DNA of 24,652 nucleotides, taken from IMG/VR virus record IMGVR_UViG_2778261572_000014; one strand, 5' to 3'. Position numbers and translations under genes: made by a program. Positions 2,014-9,281 of the stretch are shown piece by piece (within the stretch, counting starts at the first letter, position 1; each line of letters begins with the position of its first letter). The notes under the pieces were generated by a model, which did no database searches, was not told the origin of the DNA, and was given only the letters and a program-made list of their open reading frames with translations. This DNA comes from a virus (Duplodnaviria; Heunggongvirae; Uroviricota; Caudoviricetes).

Positions 2014-2439
2014 ATGCAAGAAAGCACTCAAAACGCGCCTGAGTCACTTTGCGGAACACGATGCGATCGCCTGTCAGAAATGCCAGAGGGGGTGCATCAA
2101 AAAACAGGACGCAAAGCACGTGAACGTGAAGAAATTCGACTTTCAGAAAATCCCTCGCATCTCCTGTCAAAAGAAGGATTTGCGATGTATATCGGAAAGA
2201 CCGTTGACGCCATCGTAAGCATGGCCAAAGCAGGAAAGCTACCTGCGGTGTATATGGCGGACCCTCTTAAACCAGGCGGAAACGCTGAACTCTACATCAA
2301 CAGAAAAGCGTGGGATGAAGCATGCGATCGCCTCATCGAAAACGCACCTCAGGAATGGCACGACTGGGAAAACCGTCTGTTTTTGTTTAAGCCAACAAGT
2401 GGCAGACGAAACAGAAACATCAGCGGTAAAGCAGCATAA
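2014..2439 (+). CDS. cox: Cox-like excisionase/transcriptional switch protein (start uncertain)
   Basis: ATG 2014 has GGAGGA 6 nt upstream. Segment FAMYIGKTVDAIVSMAKAGKLPAVYMADP resembles the P2 Cox HTH region. 141 aa is long for Cox (about 90 aa); internal ATGs at 2080 and 2185 are alternatives. Confidence 0.55.
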   Translation: MQESTQNAPESLCGTRCDRLSEMPEGVHQKTGRKAREREEIRLSENPSHLLSKEGFAMYIGKTVDAIVSMAKAGKLPAVYMADPLKPGGNAELYINRKAWDEACDRLIENAPQEWHDWENRLFLFKPTSGRRNRNISGKAA

Positions 2440-2476
2440 CTCAAACCATAACTCATTTTAGGCGGAGTATTTTGAT

Positions 2477-2827
2477 ATGAAGGAACGGCGCAATTCTTCA
2501 CAGCAGCGCTTCCGCAACGGGGCGGAACGCCACGCTAACCGTTTCGCTACCAGCGCATCACGCAGCAGCTCTCGCTACAGCCTGAGCGAAACACACGCAA
2601 CACCTGATGGCCATCCCGTAAAACAAATTGGCGAACACACCTGGCTGATTGAAAAAGCTGGAATCGTGGTCCACAAATGCCCACGCAATCCGTTTACCGG
2701 AAACCGCATTTTTGCACTGTTCAACGGCGACAATCAGTTCGGACAGGATTTCACATTGTACGAAGCACTACGCACGGTTGATCGTCTGCTGCGTGGACAG
2801 AGTTTTATTAAACAGGCTGATTTATAA
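2477..2827 (+). CDS. Hypothetical early protein (116 aa), R/S-rich N-terminal half
   Basis: ATG 2477 with GGCGGAG 9 nt upstream, co-oriented in the early operon. No family recognised. Confidence 0.5.
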   Translation: MKERRNSSQQRFRNGAERHANRFATSASRSSSRYSLSETHATPDGHPVKQIGEHTWLIEKAGIVVHKCPRNPFTGNRIFALFNGDNQFGQDFTLYEALRTVDRLLRGQSFIKQADL

Positions 2828-2837
2828 CAGGTGCTTT

Positions 2838-3116
2838 ATGACTAAAGACCATACTCAAGGTGTATTTATCCGCTTTATTGATTCTCGCGGTGAACTGTTA
2901 TTGCGTGCATCAGCTATTAATGGTGTGGCCCAGGCAAAAGACGCAACCACTCATATTTATTTGGACAGCGCCGCACAACTGATCGTGGAGCTTCCGTACC
3001 AGACTGTACGTGAAGTCATTAGCGAAGCTGAAAAGGCACGTCAGATTAATAGCGATGAACCATACATCGAAATTATCTGCATGGATTCAGAAGCTGAAAT
3101 TAAGAAAGCAGATTAA
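2838..3116 (+). CDS. Hypothetical early protein (92 aa)
   Basis: ORF beginning MTKDHTQGVFIRF. The longer track ORF from 2649 overlaps the previous gene by 180 nt in another frame, so the internal ATG 2838 is preferred. Confidence 0.45.
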   Translation: MTKDHTQGVFIRFIDSRGELLLRASAINGVAQAKDATTHIYLDSAAQLIVELPYQTVREVISEAEKARQINSDEPYIEIICMDSEAEIKKAD

Positions 3117-3127
3117 AGGGCGTTGTG

Positions 3128-3370
3128 ATGGGCAAAGAATATAAAACTCTCATTAACAAAGCACTTGAGCGTTTTTATTTTCGCTTAAGCGCATCAGGCG
3201 CTCATGCTGAACGTGCAGCCCGTGACTCATTGACCAGGGCAATCCGGAGTCTGTATGACGTGGCTTTTTACGCTGATGATCTGGATGCACTTAACGAACT
3301 TTCCGAGCTTATCTGCGCAGCAGAATGCGGGGAACATATTGAACCGTATAAGCTGGGGAATATCGCATGA
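3128..3370 (+). CDS. Hypothetical early protein (80 aa)
   Basis: ATG 3128; the track start at 3125 is a GTG one codon upstream. Stop overlaps the next small ORF (ATGA at 3367-3370). Confidence 0.5.
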   Translation: MGKEYKTLINKALERFYFRLSASGAHAERAARDSLTRAIRSLYDVAFYADDLDALNELSELICAAECGEHIEPYKLGNIA

Positions 3371-4902: not shown

Positions 4903-5463
4903 ATGCACAACTTCAAACTCAAACCAATGGGTACACCTGGCGTGGCTCCGGCACATGTAAAGCCATGGACACAACAGGAAGATGAAATGCTTATCTCGCT
5001 TTATCCGGAGTGCAACACGCACCAGATAACTGAACGAATTCAACGAACCCATGACGCAGTTATGCACCGACTTAGTTTTTTACGTGATCGTGGATTGATT
5101 GGCCGCAAGAAAAAGACACTGAGTGCAAAAGAGATCGCCTTTCTCATCGAAAACCGCCGCGCCAGAACAGCGCGGGAACTGGCCGCCGAGGCGGGATGCA
5201 CCCCTCGCACCGTACAAGCACACCTGAATAAACGTGGTTACAGCCTACAAAAATGCGGGGAACTCCATCACCTGACCAAATACAGCGATCACCTGGTAGA
5301 ACTGGTGACTGAACTACATGATGAGCAGCACATGACGTTCGCCATGATAGCAAAACACATTAATCACACACTGCAAATAAAAATCACCACTCGCACAGCA
5401 CGTTCTCTTTACGGTCGCCGAGTCGCTGCTGACGCCGTACTGTACGAGCTATTACCAAACTGA
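4903..5463 (+). CDS. Putative DNA-binding early protein with two HTH-like segments (186 aa)
   Basis: ATG 4903. HTH-like stretches THQITERIQRTHDAVMHRLSFL and TARELAAEAGCTPRTVQAHLNKRG. Confidence 0.5.
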   Translation: MHNFKLKPMGTPGVAPAHVKPWTQQEDEMLISLYPECNTHQITERIQRTHDAVMHRLSFLRDRGLIGRKKKTLSAKEIAFLIENRRARTARELAAEAGCTPRTVQAHLNKRGYSLQKCGELHHLTKYSDHLVELVTELHDEQHMTFAMIAKHINHTLQIKITTRTARSLYGRRVAADAVLYELLPN

Positions 5464-5583
5464 GTGATCATAATGCACACACAAAAAAACCGCTTGCCAT
5501 GCCGCAATCAGTCAGGTTACATTTCCGCTGCACCTCATAAAACGGGTGCCGGGTTTCGCAGCCTGCTGACTACAAGAGCGCAC

Positions 5584-5604
5584 AACCGCGCCAGCGGTTT
5601 TTTT
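5584..5604 (+). terminator. Intrinsic terminator candidate inside the early operon
   Basis: AACCGC-GCCA-GCGGTT stem-loop followed by a T-run (TTTTTTT through 5604), about 120 bp after the 4903-5463 ORF. Confidence 0.45.
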
Positions 5605-5783
5605 GTGCGTACTGTATTGCCACGTTTTTTTCGCGTCAGAATTATGGCGGGGCGTACGGGGCCGACTTCGGTCGGGCCGGGATCTCTTGTAGCCGGTACT
5701 GCGAACCTCGTACGTCTCGCCACCCACAGTTTCGCAGCTCTGGATGGTGAGTTTTCACAACTTACTACAAGAGGCCACATATC

Positions 5784-6014
5784 ATGGCAAACCGCAAACA
5801 GCACCGCACTATCGCGGAGCGTCGTCACATCCAGACTGAAATCAACCGCAGACTTTCCCGCGCATTCCGCGTCGCTAAAATCATGCACATCAATATGCTG
5901 CATGAGCGTAGCTGCGAACTTTCAAACCTCTATTCATCCGCTGTTTTCAGCTATCTGGCGGATGATCTGCGCGAGCTTCAACAGCTCATCCAGCAGCAAA
6001 ACAAACTCCATTAA
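5784..6014 (+). CDS. Hypothetical early protein (76 aa), basic
   Basis: ATG 5784 with AAGAGG 9 nt upstream. Balanced composition, unlike the overlapping S/T/R-rich 5464-6090 frame, which is rejected. Confidence 0.5.
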   Translation: MANRKQHRTIAERRHIQTEINRRLSRAFRVAKIMHINMLHERSCELSNLYSSAVFSYLADDLRELQQLIQQQNKLH

Positions 6015-6086
6015 TTCCTGTTCCGGGCCTTTCCTGCACCTTGCGGCGGGAGGCCTTCGCACATCTGTAACAAGAGGATTGCCGCA

Positions 6087-6452
6087 ATGATTCTCGCCAA
6101 CGACTTTCTTGAATACCTGCTCAACACAGAACGTGATCTTGCCGCTCGCGTGCGTGATCGTTATGACATGTACCTGAAATCCCTGCCTGTACCGCAGCTC
6201 GCTGACGGAAAGATTGTTATTGATGGTCGCTACATGATTGACAGCCACGAGGGAAATTACAGGCTTTACCGCATTGAAGGTGGCACCCCGTCCGTTATTG
6301 GCATTTACCAGCGCCCATCCTCTGCAATTGTCGATGTGATTGCCGACAGCATCCGCATCACACATCGCCATGCCGACACAGAAGACACCGTGCTGGAAAT
6401 TCAGCGGCTGGCTGCCGTCTGCCGCGACACCCTGAATGGCATGACGAAGTAA
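6087..6452 (+). CDS. Hypothetical early protein (121 aa), immediately upstream of A
   Basis: ATG 6087 with AAGAGG 9 nt upstream. Confidence 0.5.
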   Translation: MILANDFLEYLLNTERDLAARVRDRYDMYLKSLPVPQLADGKIVIDGRYMIDSHEGNYRLYRIEGGTPSVIGIYQRPSSAIVDVIADSIRITHRHADTEDTVLEIQRLAAVCRDTLNGMTK

Positions 6453-6458
6453 ATCACT

Positions 6459-9281
6459 ATGACGGCAGAGTACATCAGGGACTGGCAACAACCGCGCCAC
6501 GCAGTGGGACGTGAAGGAACGGGGATCCCCGTTCCTGAATCTGCGCTTTCCTCCTGGCTGGATGCCTACCGGGCAGAGAACGAGCGCCGCCAGGAAATGG
6601 CTGATGCGGCGTTCTCCGCCACGCCGCTGGGCAACCTGATTAATAAAAGCCTGGATGCACAGGAAAAACAGGACAAAACCATCACACTGGCAGGAGACGC
6701 CAGAAAACAGGCACGCGGCGCGGTGGATGAAGCCATGGCCTCGCTGCGCCTGCTGCCGTCCTATCTGCGCGATCCGCTTATTCGCCACCTCTCCTTCCTG
6801 CGCAAAAAACAGGAAGTCGATCGCCGGAAAGGCAAAAAGAGCTGGCAGGCTGAACGCTACGCGCGCGGAACCCTGCGCAAAATATTCGAACGTCTGGATC
6901 GCACTGACGGACACTGGCTGACACCGGGTTATCGCTTCCTTGCCGGACGCGAACGCCTGGACGATTTGCTTTACCTGCCGCAGCTCAACAAACACCAGAT
7001 ACAGACGCTGGCCACCATGACGGCGGCGATGTTCAGCAGCACCTTCGAAAAACTCTGCGATGGCTTTGGCGCGACCGATGGCGAACTGACCATGGATGTA
7101 ACGCTGAAGGCGTATCAGATGCTGGCCCGCATGGCGTTACACCTGCACATCATGCCTCCACATTATGACGCACTGACAACAGATAAAGACCGGAGGAACG
7201 AACCGGACACGGAGCTGCTGCCGGGCGCAATCCTTCGCCTGACCTGTGCGGAATGGTGGAAACGCAAACTGTGGCTGTTACGTTGCGAGTGGAGAGAAGA
7301 ACAACTCCGCGCCGCCTGTCTGGTTTCCAGAAAAACATCACCCTATCTGAGCCAGGACGCGTTAAGCGAGTTTCGCGCACAGCGCGAGAAAACACGCGAT
7401 TTCCTGAAAAGTTTCATGCTGGAAAACGAAGACGGGTTCACGATTGATCTCGAGACAGTGTATTACGCGGGAGTAAGTAACCCGGTTCACCGTAAGGCAG
7501 AAATGATGGCCACCATGAAGGGGCTGGAACTTCTGGCCGAAGCCCGTGGCGACAAAGCGGTGTTTCTGACTGTCACCTGCCCGTCAAAATACCACGCCAC
7601 AACAGAGAACGGTCATCCGAATCCCAAATGGAACGGGGCCACCATGCGCGACTCCAGCGATTACCTGGTTAACACGTTTTTTGCAGCGGTCCGCAAGAAA
7701 CTGAACCGCGACGGCCTGCGCTGGTATGGCATCCGCACGGTGGAGCCTCACCATGACGGCACCGTGCACTGGCATATGATGGTCTTTGCTCATCCGGAAG
7801 AAATCGACACCATTGTGTCCCACACCCGCGATATTGCCATTCAGGAAGATCGTCACGAGCTGGGTGATGATATTACCCCACGCTTTAAGGCGGAGTACGT
7901 CGACGGCTCAAAAGGCACGCCAACCAGCTACATCGCCACCTACATCGGAAAGAACCTGGACAGCCGCGCCGTGGATGGCATCGACCCGAAAACGGGCAAG
8001 CCACGCGTTGACCACGAAACAGGTAAATCAATGGCCGAGAGCGTGGAGCGCGCCATCGGCTGGGCGCGCCTTCACCGGGTCCGCCAGTTCCAGTTCTTTG
8101 GCATCCCCTCCCGTCAGGTGTGGCGTGAACTCCGCCGCCTTGCCAGCCAGATGGCACGCAACCCGGAAGGCCCGCAACGGCTGAAGGATGACGCAATGGA
8201 TGCGGTACTCGCTGCCGCTGATGCCGGATGTTTTGCCACCTACATTGAAAAACAGGGTGGCGTACTTGTTCCGCGCAAGGACTACCTGATTCGCACAGCC
8301 TACGACCTCGCAGATGAGCTGAACGATTACGGCGAACAGAGTGTACAGATTTACGGGATCTGGTCGCCATTCATCGGGGAATCCTCCCGTGTGTGCACGC
8401 ATCCGGATAACTGGAAGCTGGTAAGACGTAAACCGGAAGCGGAAGACAGCGCCCGCGAAAATGGTTTTGACCTTCAGGGCGGCCCTGCCGCCCCTTGGAC
8501 TCGTGGCAATAACTGTCCCCGTGTACAGGAAACGGACAACAACGGGACAGAACAGCCGGAAGAACGGCCAGCACCGTGGCCGCAGCTCCCTGACGGCGTT
8601 GAAGTGAACGAATGGATGCGCTCACTGAAACGGCACGAACGCCGGGCGCTGATGCGTTCGCTTCGTGACAAACAGGCAAAAAACAGCAGTGATGAAATGC
8701 AGAGCTGGACACAGAGCCGCAAACAGCAGCGGCCTTTGCCTGATAACCACGAATTACTCGCTAAAGAATGGCGGGAGTCTGCCGAATCTCTCGGCCTGCA
8801 TATCGGTGAACAGCAGATGCAGCACCTGTTACGGGGCGGCAGCCTGTACGTTGACGGCAGCATCATTGCACCGCAGGGATTTGAAATTGTACGCAAACCG
8901 GATACCCGCCCGGACAGCCGAATCACGCAGCTCTGGCAGCGCCTGAGCCGTAATCACGGCGTAAGCAGCACGGAGATCCGCCATAACCCGGTCGCCGGCT
9001 ATCTGGAACAGCTGGGGATATCAGACCCCGAAGCCGCCGCACGCCTGGCATCCACACTTCAGCAGGACCAGAACACCATGAAAACCCCCGTTACCGTGCT
9101 TTCTGACATGCTGCGCGCCATCCGTGACGCAGAGCACGCACAGAGAATCAGTGAAACCACTGAACGCGCCCGCCGCAAAGCAGACCTGCTGCGGGGTAGC
9201 CTGACCAGTGGAAACAAAAAACAGACAGAAACGGGATTCATAAAACCCGTAAATGAGCAAAAAACGCGCCGCGATATATGA
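6459..9281 (+). CDS. A: Rolling-circle replication initiator endonuclease, P2 gpA family
   Basis: 940 aa. Contains TVTCPSKYH and RTVEPHHDGTVHWHMMVF (HUH-type motif), followed by YIATYIGKN, as in P2 A (LTAPSKYH, RVVEPHHDGTPHWHMMLF). C-terminal third is long and low-complexity. Confidence 0.9.
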   Translation: MTAEYIRDWQQPRHAVGREGTGIPVPESALSSWLDAYRAENERRQEMADAAFSATPLGNLINKSLDAQEKQDKTITLAGDARKQARGAVDEAMASLRLLPSYLRDPLIRHLSFLRKKQEVDRRKGKKSWQAERYARGTLRKIFERLDRTDGHWLTPGYRFLAGRERLDDLLYLPQLNKHQIQTLATMTAAMFSSTFEKLCDGFGATDGELTMDVTLKAYQMLARMALHLHIMPPHYDALTTDKDRRNEPDTELLPGAILRLTCAEWWKRKLWLLRCEWREEQLRAACLVSRKTSPYLSQDALSEFRAQREKTRDFLKSFMLENEDGFTIDLETVYYAGVSNPVHRKAEMMATMKGLELLAEARGDKAVFLTVTCPSKYHATTENGHPNPKWNGATMRDSSDYLVNTFFAAVRKKLNRDGLRWYGIRTVEPHHDGTVHWHMMVFAHPEEIDTIVSHTRDIAIQEDRHELGDDITPRFKAEYVDGSKGTPTSYIATYIGKNLDSRAVDGIDPKTGKPRVDHETGKSMAESVERAIGWARLHRVRQFQFFGIPSRQVWRELRRLASQMARNPEGPQRLKDDAMDAVLAAADAGCFATYIEKQGGVLVPRKDYLIRTAYDLADELNDYGEQSVQIYGIWSPFIGESSRVCTHPDNWKLVRRKPEAEDSARENGFDLQGGPAAPWTRGNNCPRVQETDNNGTEQPEERPAPWPQLPDGVEVNEWMRSLKRHERRALMRSLRDKQAKNSSDEMQSWTQSRKQQRPLPDNHELLAKEWRESAESLGLHIGEQQMQHLLRGGSLYVDGSIIAPQGFEIVRKPDTRPDSRITQLWQRLSRNHGVSSTEIRHNPVAGYLEQLGISDPEAAARLASTLQQDQNTMKTPVTVLSDMLRAIRDAEHAQRISETTERARRKADLLRGSLTSGNKKQTETGFIKPVNEQKTRRDI

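Follow-up and report, generated by a model that had tools for sequence, protein, structure and literature searches.

An IsrK–C4 antisense 'immunity' cassette very probably occupies the 320-nt island at positions 5464-5783 of the viral DNA considered here, a 24,652-nt stretch (Caudoviricetes; IMG/VR record IMGVR_UViG_2778261572_000014) that is referred to at its full length as the window. The cassette is taken to be homologous to immI of phages P1 and P7, to seqA–CI–seqC of P4, and to isrK–STnc1160 of the Gifsy-1 prophage. This assignment is carried by the membership of two RNAs in known families, the fold of these RNAs, the complementarity of their boxes, the concerted variation of the boxes among relatives, the colinearity of the island with P1 immI, and the homology of the gene that follows to the ε gene of P4. 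The first-pass annotation of the same DNA had read the island as an internal terminator plus restart point splitting the early operon, or as a small RNA. The second suggestion has been borne out by Rfam, which places two small RNAs there, IsrK and C4.

Systems of this kind are already well known, and both RNAs are established Rfam families. The name 'IsrK-C4 immunity system' is found in Barquist et al. 2013, where P4, P1, P7, N15, and lambdoid prophages are listed (PMC3632133). The element that carries the island is a prophage of the P2 family, P88 / Xuanwuvirus type (Peduoviridae), as judged from PHROG and Pfam assignments and from DNA similarity. A literature search found no paper on the cassette in P2-like, Peduoviridae, Xuanwuvirus, or P88 phages, and none that connects it with a gene of the ε type in a phage of the helper kind.

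The IsrK and C4 RNAs

Identification of the two RNAs relied on a scan of the whole window against Rfam with curated gathering thresholds. Exactly two matches were returned, isrK and C4, both inside the island, on the + strand, above gathering, and over the full length of the model (Table 1). No tRNA or tmRNA was found in the window. The same pair of families is also present in P88, the Citrobacter phage Shae_phiSM, lambdoid phages, P4, and Gifsy-1.

Table 1. Positions in the window of the island, its RNAs and boxes, and the genes downstream
Feature	Position	Strand	Basis and remarks
Island	5464-5783		Between the stop codon of the 186-aa helix-turn-helix gene (4903-5463) and the 76-aa gene (5784-6014)
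Candidate promoter of the IsrK/C4 transcript	5494-5523	+	Consensus scan; -35 TTGCCA 5494-5499, 18-nt spacer, -10 TACATT 5518-5523
IsrK-family small RNA, a1/b1 leader (P4 seqA equivalent)	5530-5604	+	Rfam RF01394, 66.7 bits (gathering 50), model 1-77/77
a1 box TTCGCAG	5555-5561	+	Loop of IsrK hairpin 2; complementary to a'
b1 box CTACAAGAG	5570-5578	+	Single-stranded IsrK linker; complementary to b'
IsrK intrinsic terminator	5584-5604	+	6-bp stem AACCGC/GCGGTT, then T7 run; -8.5 kcal/mol
C4 Rfam match	5640-5727	+	Rfam RF01695, 81.1 bits (gathering 45), model 1-87/87
AAUUAU leader immediately 5' of mature C4	5640-5645	+	Presumed RNase P leader, not a -10 box
Mature C4, predicted ends	5646-5724	+	Homology with P1 C4 (77 nt)
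b' box CUCUUGUAG	5684-5692	+	12-nt loop of C4 hairpin 2
a' box CUGCGAA	5699-5705	+	Single-stranded C4 junction; same position as P1 a' (CUGUCAA)
a2 target box TTCGCAG	5731-5737	+	Complementary to a'
b2 target box CTACAAGAG	5765-5773	+	Covers 5/6 nt of the Shine-Dalgarno AAGAGG (5769-5774) of the 76-aa gene
Guarded gene, 76-aa homologue of P4 ε (helper-derepression, antirepressor)	5784-6014	+	Pfam PF25738 'Derepression', 30.1 bits (gathering 27)
121-aa protein, function unassigned	6087-6452	+	PHROG 3237 only
Replication endonuclease gpA	6459-9281	+	Same transcription unit

The IsrK RNA consists of three hairpins, the last of which is its terminator. An intrinsic-terminator-like hairpin with a T-run had been pointed out at this place, inside the early operon, and the consensus scan recovers it. 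The conservation of the hairpin was followed in an alignment of seven sequences, namely the window, P88, Shae_phiSM, an E. coli prophage, two lambdoid phages, and P1. A terminator hairpin stands in the same columns in all seven; it is near-identical in six, and its stem differs in P1. A permissive search also returned a sub-threshold match of 20.5 bits at 5517-5569 to RF03163 (c4-a1b1, 'a1, b1 targets of C4 antisense RNA'). The transcription start is predicted near 5530, where the isrK match begins, with the candidate -10 box ending 6 nt before it. This -10 box, part of a promoter-like site that the first-pass annotation had not reported, shares alignment columns with the annotated P1 promoter P1c4 (= P51b, NC_005856).

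The C4 RNA is composed of a 17-bp outer stem, hairpin 1 with its UUCG loop (5662-5675), hairpin 2 (5676-5697), and an ACC 3' tail. The UUCG hairpin seen in the first-pass annotation is real and is hairpin 1, with a 5-bp stem in which 5662-5666 pair with 5671-5675. The minimum free energy (MFE) of the C4 fold is -46.5 kcal/mol (z = -5.2), none of 200 shuffles is as stable, and the MFE structure is the Rfam structure. The hairpins are conserved in related prophages: among 50 distinct relatives, 98 % of the cells in the C4 helices are paired and double changes occur in 14 of the 27 pairs, while controls with slid partners bring the pairing down to 36-48 % (about 40 %).

The hexamer AATTAT precedes the predicted mature C4, and the leader and the ACC tail are both present as in P1 C4. 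The independent evidence for the leader comes from P1, in which the annotated mature C4 begins right after AATTAT. The hexamer is found in 49 of the 50 C4 relatives, a count that is partly circular because the pattern used for collecting them contained AATTAT; this pattern served to collect or to screen 48 of the 49 carriers, among them the window. P1 and P4 are the only rows of the set outside this collecting and screening, and P4 does not have the hexamer. In P1 and P4, RNase P cuts the mature C4-type RNA from a longer transcript, and by analogy RNase P is presumed to process C4 here.

The position of this leader bears directly on the proposed restart point. A plain terminator followed by a sigma-70 restart promoter, with its -35 box at 5617-5622 and its -10 box at 5640-5645, would split the early operon and make the hairpins incidental. 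The consensus scan does find both a terminator-like and a promoter-like site, so that the promoter reported at 5617-5645 exists as a 9/12 match. Such matches are nevertheless no more frequent than in shuffles (two sigma-70-like sites were found versus 2.6 expected), and the supposed -10 box, AATTAT, is the leader directly 5' of mature C4 in P1. A start 6-8 nt past AATTAT would deprive the RNA of the 5' arm of its 17-bp outer stem. The -35 box reads TCGCCA in P88 and Shae_phiSM, 11 nt of the spacer are missing in the lambdoid relatives and P1, and the way in which the a and b boxes vary together at their three sites, described below, would be left unexplained. Because AATTAT is the leader, the -35 box and spacer are unconserved, and such sites are not enriched, the restart promoter is not accepted as a conserved feature, and a plain terminator-and-restart arrangement is very improbable.

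A protein-coding role is more improbable still. The island holds no believable protein gene, as the first-pass annotation had stated; a 208-aa open reading frame (ORF) and two reverse ORFs exist only in the mechanical sense, and a 100 %-identical RefSeq record has no coding sequence (CDS) there. The 208-aa ORF (5464-6090) corresponds to the 'Ash family protein' of some RefSeq genomes. It is open throughout, the homologous ORF is named 'ash family protein' in NZ_CP173472, and there is a weak match to Pfam PF10554 (Phage_ASH). This match, however, scores 23 bits, below the cut-off of 26, and the ε-like gene, which is well supported, overlaps the ORF in a different frame. The region is conserved in an RNA-like manner, with compensatory pairs, hypervariable boxes, and frame-breaking gaps of 1, 2, and 11 nt. 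The founding member of the family, the P4 'cI protein', overlies a stretch that is regarded as an RNA gene in the literature on P4. Against PF10554, the former P4 'cI gene product' ORF reaches 59.7 bits and the ORF of the window 23 bits; Phage_ASH therefore appears to be a translation of the RNA region, and the Pfam family is probably an artefact of a conserved RNA gene.

Ash-type ORFs lie on the isrK–C4 region at 5464-6090 (+) of the window, at 2501-3118 of a second record (L008), and at 8168-8584 (-) of P4 (L129). In PhiR63_1 (L004), a CDS annotated as 'Rha protein' (2141-3292) runs across isrK (2501-2577) and C4 (2602-2689). Some lambdoid records likewise have the start of the Rha or antirepressor gene annotated far upstream; the true start is likely to lie ~139 nt after the 5' end of C4.

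Antisense boxes and their concerted variation

The short repeats of the island define which stretches of the two RNAs can pair. The first-pass annotation had reported two copies of the 10-mer ACTACAAGAG with its reverse complement between them, and had noted that the copy at 5764 and a related one at 6069 take in the Shine-Dalgarno sequences of the next two genes. The copy at 5764-5773 stands, the first copy lies at 5569-5578 rather than at 5568, and the reverse complement is present as CTCTTGTAG at 5684-5692. A second repeat, GTTTCGCAGC, at 5553-5562 and 5729-5738 with the core TTCGCAG, had been overlooked. Rather than generic Shine-Dalgarno motifs, the repeats are the boxes of a C4-type system, antisense on one side and target on the other, in which b' and b2 can pair over 9 nt and a' and a2 over 7 nt. 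With at most one mismatch allowed, 0.75 matches to the ACTACAAGAG pattern are expected per window and three are reached in 3 of 100 shuffles; all copies fall within 205 bp. In the MFE fold of 5530-5800, a1/b1 are paired in cis with a'/b'.

Comparison among relatives reveals that these boxes change together. The alignment of seven phages displays a conserved backbone interrupted by two hypervariable boxes, with seven different box sequences, and in 7/7 phages a change at one site is matched by compensating changes at the other two (a1/a'/a2 and b1/b'/b2). A broader sample was obtained by scanning viral contigs with a pattern of the C4 5' end that contains AATTAT, which yielded 91 unique genuine islands with 43 distinct (b2, a2) pairs. 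Complementarity was scored by taking the two best colinear complementary matches of a flank to C4 nt 29-64 and adding up their lengths. For the downstream flank, the score averages 15.5 for cognate and 9.6 for non-cognate combinations, and a score of at least 14 is reached by 95 % of the former versus 1.4 % of the latter. The upstream flank scores 14.0 with the cognate C4 versus 10.2 with non-cognate C4.

A third C4 target before the 121-aa gene (TTCGCA at 6054-6059 and ACAAGAG at 6071-6077) was considered and rejected, as the stretch does not track the C4 boxes. The related copy that had been reported at 6069 is a real sequence, AACAAGAGG at 6070-6078, which falls outside the system. Its region is the same in 13 of the 24 listed P2-like relatives, which between them have about ten C4 specificities, and its differences in the others do not go along with the boxes; it is no more than the sequence around the Shine-Dalgarno of the 121-aa gene.

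Reassortment of the a boxes is independent of that of the b boxes, with 10 loops, 5 junctions, and 13 combinations in the 24 unique P2-like islands; two of the junction sequences of these islands are also present in ORF6N-type prophages. In the sample, no full box combination is common to different phage classes, with the exception of one that occurs in Rha-type islands and in an island that a crude classification left unplaced. One viral contig (L074) has two matches to the C4 5' pattern, at 7025 and 7894, 870 nt apart. In several relatives (L005, L013, L037, L077, and others), b1 and sometimes b2 fit the C4 loop by G-U pairs or with 1-2 mismatches, and the a boxes are perfect. The b1 box seems to be less constrained than b2; alternatively, the imperfect boxes may be partial escape variants.

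The putatively guarded gene, the early operon, and the proposed mechanism

The gene that follows the cassette provides insight into what the RNAs may control. Its 76-aa product is 30 % identical to P4 ε over 66 aa (BLASTP, E = 2e-9) and matches PHROG 3688 (E = 7.8e-45); its relatives are annotated as 'derepression protein'. P4 ε acts on the C repressor of P2. The layout of the prophage is that of P2 according to PHROG and Pfam, with an integrase, a C repressor, Cox, the early operon, and the gpA nickase, and its C repressor is 44 % identical to P2 C. In the immunity and early region of phage P2 itself, neither C4 nor isrK was found.

Across the 91 islands, the gene just downstream is always of the antirepressor type, and the type varies with the class of phage. 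It is ε-like in the P2-like class (24 unique islands), Icd followed by Ant in the P1-like class, and Rha in the lambdoids; the remaining islands are followed by ORF6N, or by Bro-N with P22_AR_C. The order ε-like gene, 121- or 129-aa ORF, gpA is kept in 24/24 unique P2-like islands. The 121-aa protein has no Pfam or NCBIfam match, and in some relatives an alternative 129-aa protein takes its slot.

The island and the genes downstream are 91-96 % identical at the DNA level to P88-type phages. The phage ΦSM forms lysogens in E. coli K-12 (PMC6456863). A mosaic junction lies at ~5473, where P88-type similarity begins ~10 nt past the end of the 186-aa reading frame. What precedes the cassette varies: the gene there codes for a protein with an SPFH domain in P88 and for a DNA-binding one in the window and Shae_phiSM. 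Since the upstream gene varies while the similarity starts at ~5473, the cassette, the ε-like gene, orf121, and gpA behave as one module. The 72-nt gap between the ε-like and 121-aa genes contains a GC-rich hairpin (6025-6056) with no T-run after it; the segment 6010-6090 folds at -24 kcal/mol and is nearly invariant in sequence among P2-like relatives.

A mechanism can be proposed in which transcripts would start near 5530 from the candidate promoter at ~5494-5523, and the majority would end at the IsrK terminator (5584-5604) to give a ~75-nt IsrK that displays a1 and b1. Read-through transcripts, together with early-operon transcripts from upstream, would carry the C4 precursor, which would be trimmed to a tRNA-like RNA of ~79 nt (5646-5724) with the b' loop and the a' junction single-stranded. 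C4 would then pair with a2 and b2, cover the Shine-Dalgarno sequence of the ε-like gene, and block its translation, and the loss of ε-like translation would probably lower transcription of the 121-aa gene and of replication gene A. A polarity effect may reach both of these genes, which would place them under the control of C4. The a1 and b1 boxes of IsrK would compete for the same C4 boxes, in cis when part of the read-through RNA and in trans from the short form, so that IsrK would be a second target or a decoy setting the level of free C4. With rising early transcription, target RNA would come to exceed C4, the ε-like protein would be made, and the P2-type C repressor would be inactivated. 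The steps of processing, translational repression, and polarity, the part of IsrK as a decoy, and what the ε-like protein acts on are modelled on the literature on P1, P4, and Gifsy-1.

Several observations weigh against this account or parts of it. The candidate promoter, read from the DNA letters, reaches 9/12 of the consensus, and sites of this kind are not enriched. The 76-aa protein shows modest homology to ε (30 bits; 30 % identity) and no BLASTP similarity to P1 Icd. No KilAC-type Ant domain (PF03374) is encoded downstream, and the P1 partner proteins are absent. RNAduplex energies fail to separate cognate from non-cognate C4: cognate pairings range from -10.5 to -13.6 kcal/mol, and the non-cognate P88 loop reaches -12.9 kcal/mol on the a1/b1 region via an alternative wobble pairing. 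The b1 or b2 box is imperfect in some relatives. The published outcomes also differ among the systems, from translational repression with Rho-dependent polarity in P1 to premature termination in P4 and activation by IsrK in Gifsy-1, and sequence does not rank them here.

The prevalence of the island makes its identity of practical interest. A megablast match to it is present in 1282 of 5426 complete E. coli genomes, at up to four places per genome. The cassette explains a recurrent unannotated gap that some genomes fill with a spurious 'ash family protein' CDS. In a P2-family phage it would provide a second tier of immunity, made of antisense RNA, linked to an ε-type antirepressor and located within the early replication operon, and it may be a route for induction and for cross-talk with P4-like satellites. 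The known workings of C4-type systems are unchanged by these observations.

A broader proposition is put forward tentatively, namely that phages of the P88-like helper type possess an RNA-guarded ε antirepressor of their own, borne on the same kind of cassette with which satellite P4 secures its immunity and derepresses its helper. Two linked readings follow from it. Under the first, the CI/ε module of P4 and the modules of the P2 family would have a recent common origin, and the weapon of a satellite against the repressor of its helper would be a borrowed helper gene, or the reverse. Under the second, the a and b boxes would constitute a combinatorial RNA 'immunity code', with single boxes of the P2-like islands recurring in ORF6N-type and other prophages, and through it co-resident prophages and satellites could silence or trigger each other's antirepressors. 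Such a code could also provide an induction route for P2-type phages, which are not known to have an SOS-cleavable repressor.

Comparison with P1, P4, Gifsy-1, and lambdoid prophages

The immI region of P1 (NC_005856) is annotated in the order promoter P1c4 (= P51b), a1, b1, the 77-nt C4, a2, b2, icd, and ant, and the window is colinear with it almost base for base. In both, 32 nt separate the -10 box from a1, 11 nt separate the end of b2 from the ATG of the first gene (the ε-like gene in the window, icd in P1), and AATTAT stands directly before the first G of mature C4. The C4 RNAs belong to the same family and share the three-helix fold, with b' in the loop of hairpin 2 and a' in the junction. 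Both systems have upstream and downstream pairs of targets, with b2 over the ribosome-binding site of a first gene of ~75 aa. The two differ in the box sequences (TTCGCAG / CTACAAGAG in the window versus TTGACAG / GTTAGTG in P1), in the first gene (ε-like versus Icd), and in what comes after it (the 121-aa ORF and gpA versus Ant, PF03374). Unlike that of P1, the upstream element of the window scores as isrK rather than as c4-a1b1, for which it reaches 20.5 bits. The window element is an integrated P2-like myovirus, whereas P1 is a plasmid prophage.

P4 resembles the window in that its seqA leader matches isrK and its CI RNA matches C4 in Rfam, and in that an ε-family gene lies downstream, with a replication gene at the end of the operon (ε, orf151, orf106, and α in P4). 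In contrast, the distance from CI to ε is ~245 nt in P4, with nested kil and eta ORFs, and C4 is followed by the ε-like ATG after 59 nt in the window, which leaves no room for ORFs of the kil/eta type. The b2 box rests on the Shine-Dalgarno sequence of the ε-like gene, unlike in P4. The replication protein is a rolling-circle nickase, gpA, in the window and a primase-helicase, α, in P4; orf121 is unrelated to P4 orf151 and shows no similarity to it, though it takes the same slot. The window element also encodes the protein repressor C, whereas P4 has no protein repressor as its immunity factor.

These likenesses raise the question of whether the logic of P4 dominates here, with C4 acting on the nascent a1/b1 and a2/b2 mainly to cause premature termination and to silence replication gene A. 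The cassette would then be a second layer of immunity over replication and not a guard on the ε-like protein. The parallel between isrK–C4–ε-like–small ORF–replication gene and the P4 order seqA–CI–…–ε–orf151–orf106–α, the homology of the 76-aa protein to ε, and the position of the cassette upstream of gpA in 24/24 unique P2-like islands all point in this direction, as does the P4 mechanism itself, which has been summarised as CI-dependent termination via seqA and seqC (PMC4825925). On the other hand, the consensus scan finds no terminator-like site on the + strand from C4 up to gpA, and b2 covers the Shine-Dalgarno sequence exactly as in P1, where translational repression comes first. The spacing of 59 nt versus ~245 nt likewise counts against a P4-type outcome, whose dominance is possible but doubtful. 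It is compatible with the proposed C4 repression of the ε-like gene rather than exclusive of it.

Gifsy-1 shares with the window the order of isrK, a C4-family RNA ('orf45' / STnc1160), and an antirepressor-type gene, anrP, as well as the pairing of the isrK and C4 RNAs in cis. Gifsy-1 itself is lambdoid, its cargo AnrP is a larger antirepressor-like protein, and its cassette follows antQ within the region of late regulation, while the cassette of the window lies inside the early replication operon. The C4 region of Gifsy-1 was read as a 45-codon ORF by Hershko-Shalev et al. 2016 (PMC4825925), who also noted the analogy to P4 seqA and CI. In their work, IsrK was present in two forms, a short RNA ending at the terminator and an mRNA produced by read-through. 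The central part of IsrK base-pairs in cis with RNA further downstream, and mutations that first disrupt and then restore this pairing alter the RNA conformation and anrP translation in line with the pairing model. The short IsrK supplied in trans switches on anrP translation more than 100-fold, and induction of the prophage requires the isrK promoter (PMC4825925).

Should the logic of Gifsy-1 dominate in the window, the read-through RNA would be locked by cis pairing of a1/b1 with a'/b', and the cassette would be chiefly a trigger of induction and not a repressor. The MFE fold of 5530-5800 contains this cis pairing, the same two families occur in the same order, and the published effects of short IsrK and of its promoter fit such a role. 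However, the free C4-like RNA (STnc1160) was not demonstrated to be dispensable in the same experiments, C4 and CI are defined as repressors by the genetics of P1 and P4, and the two outcomes are not rankable by sequence alone. A predominantly Gifsy-1-like mode of action is thought somewhat unlikely; nor does it exclude repression by C4, since IsrK acting as an anti-C4 decoy would yield the same phenotype.

The lambdoid Stx and E. coli prophages, such as PhiR63_1 and 1720a-02, extend the comparison beyond these three systems. They carry both RNA families at ~70 % identity to the window, in the early rightward operon, with cro/ymfL on one side and the replication genes on the other. Their cassettes differ from that of the window in the cargo, which is Rha (PF09669), in an isrK–C4 spacer that is 11 nt shorter, and in the sequences of the boxes.

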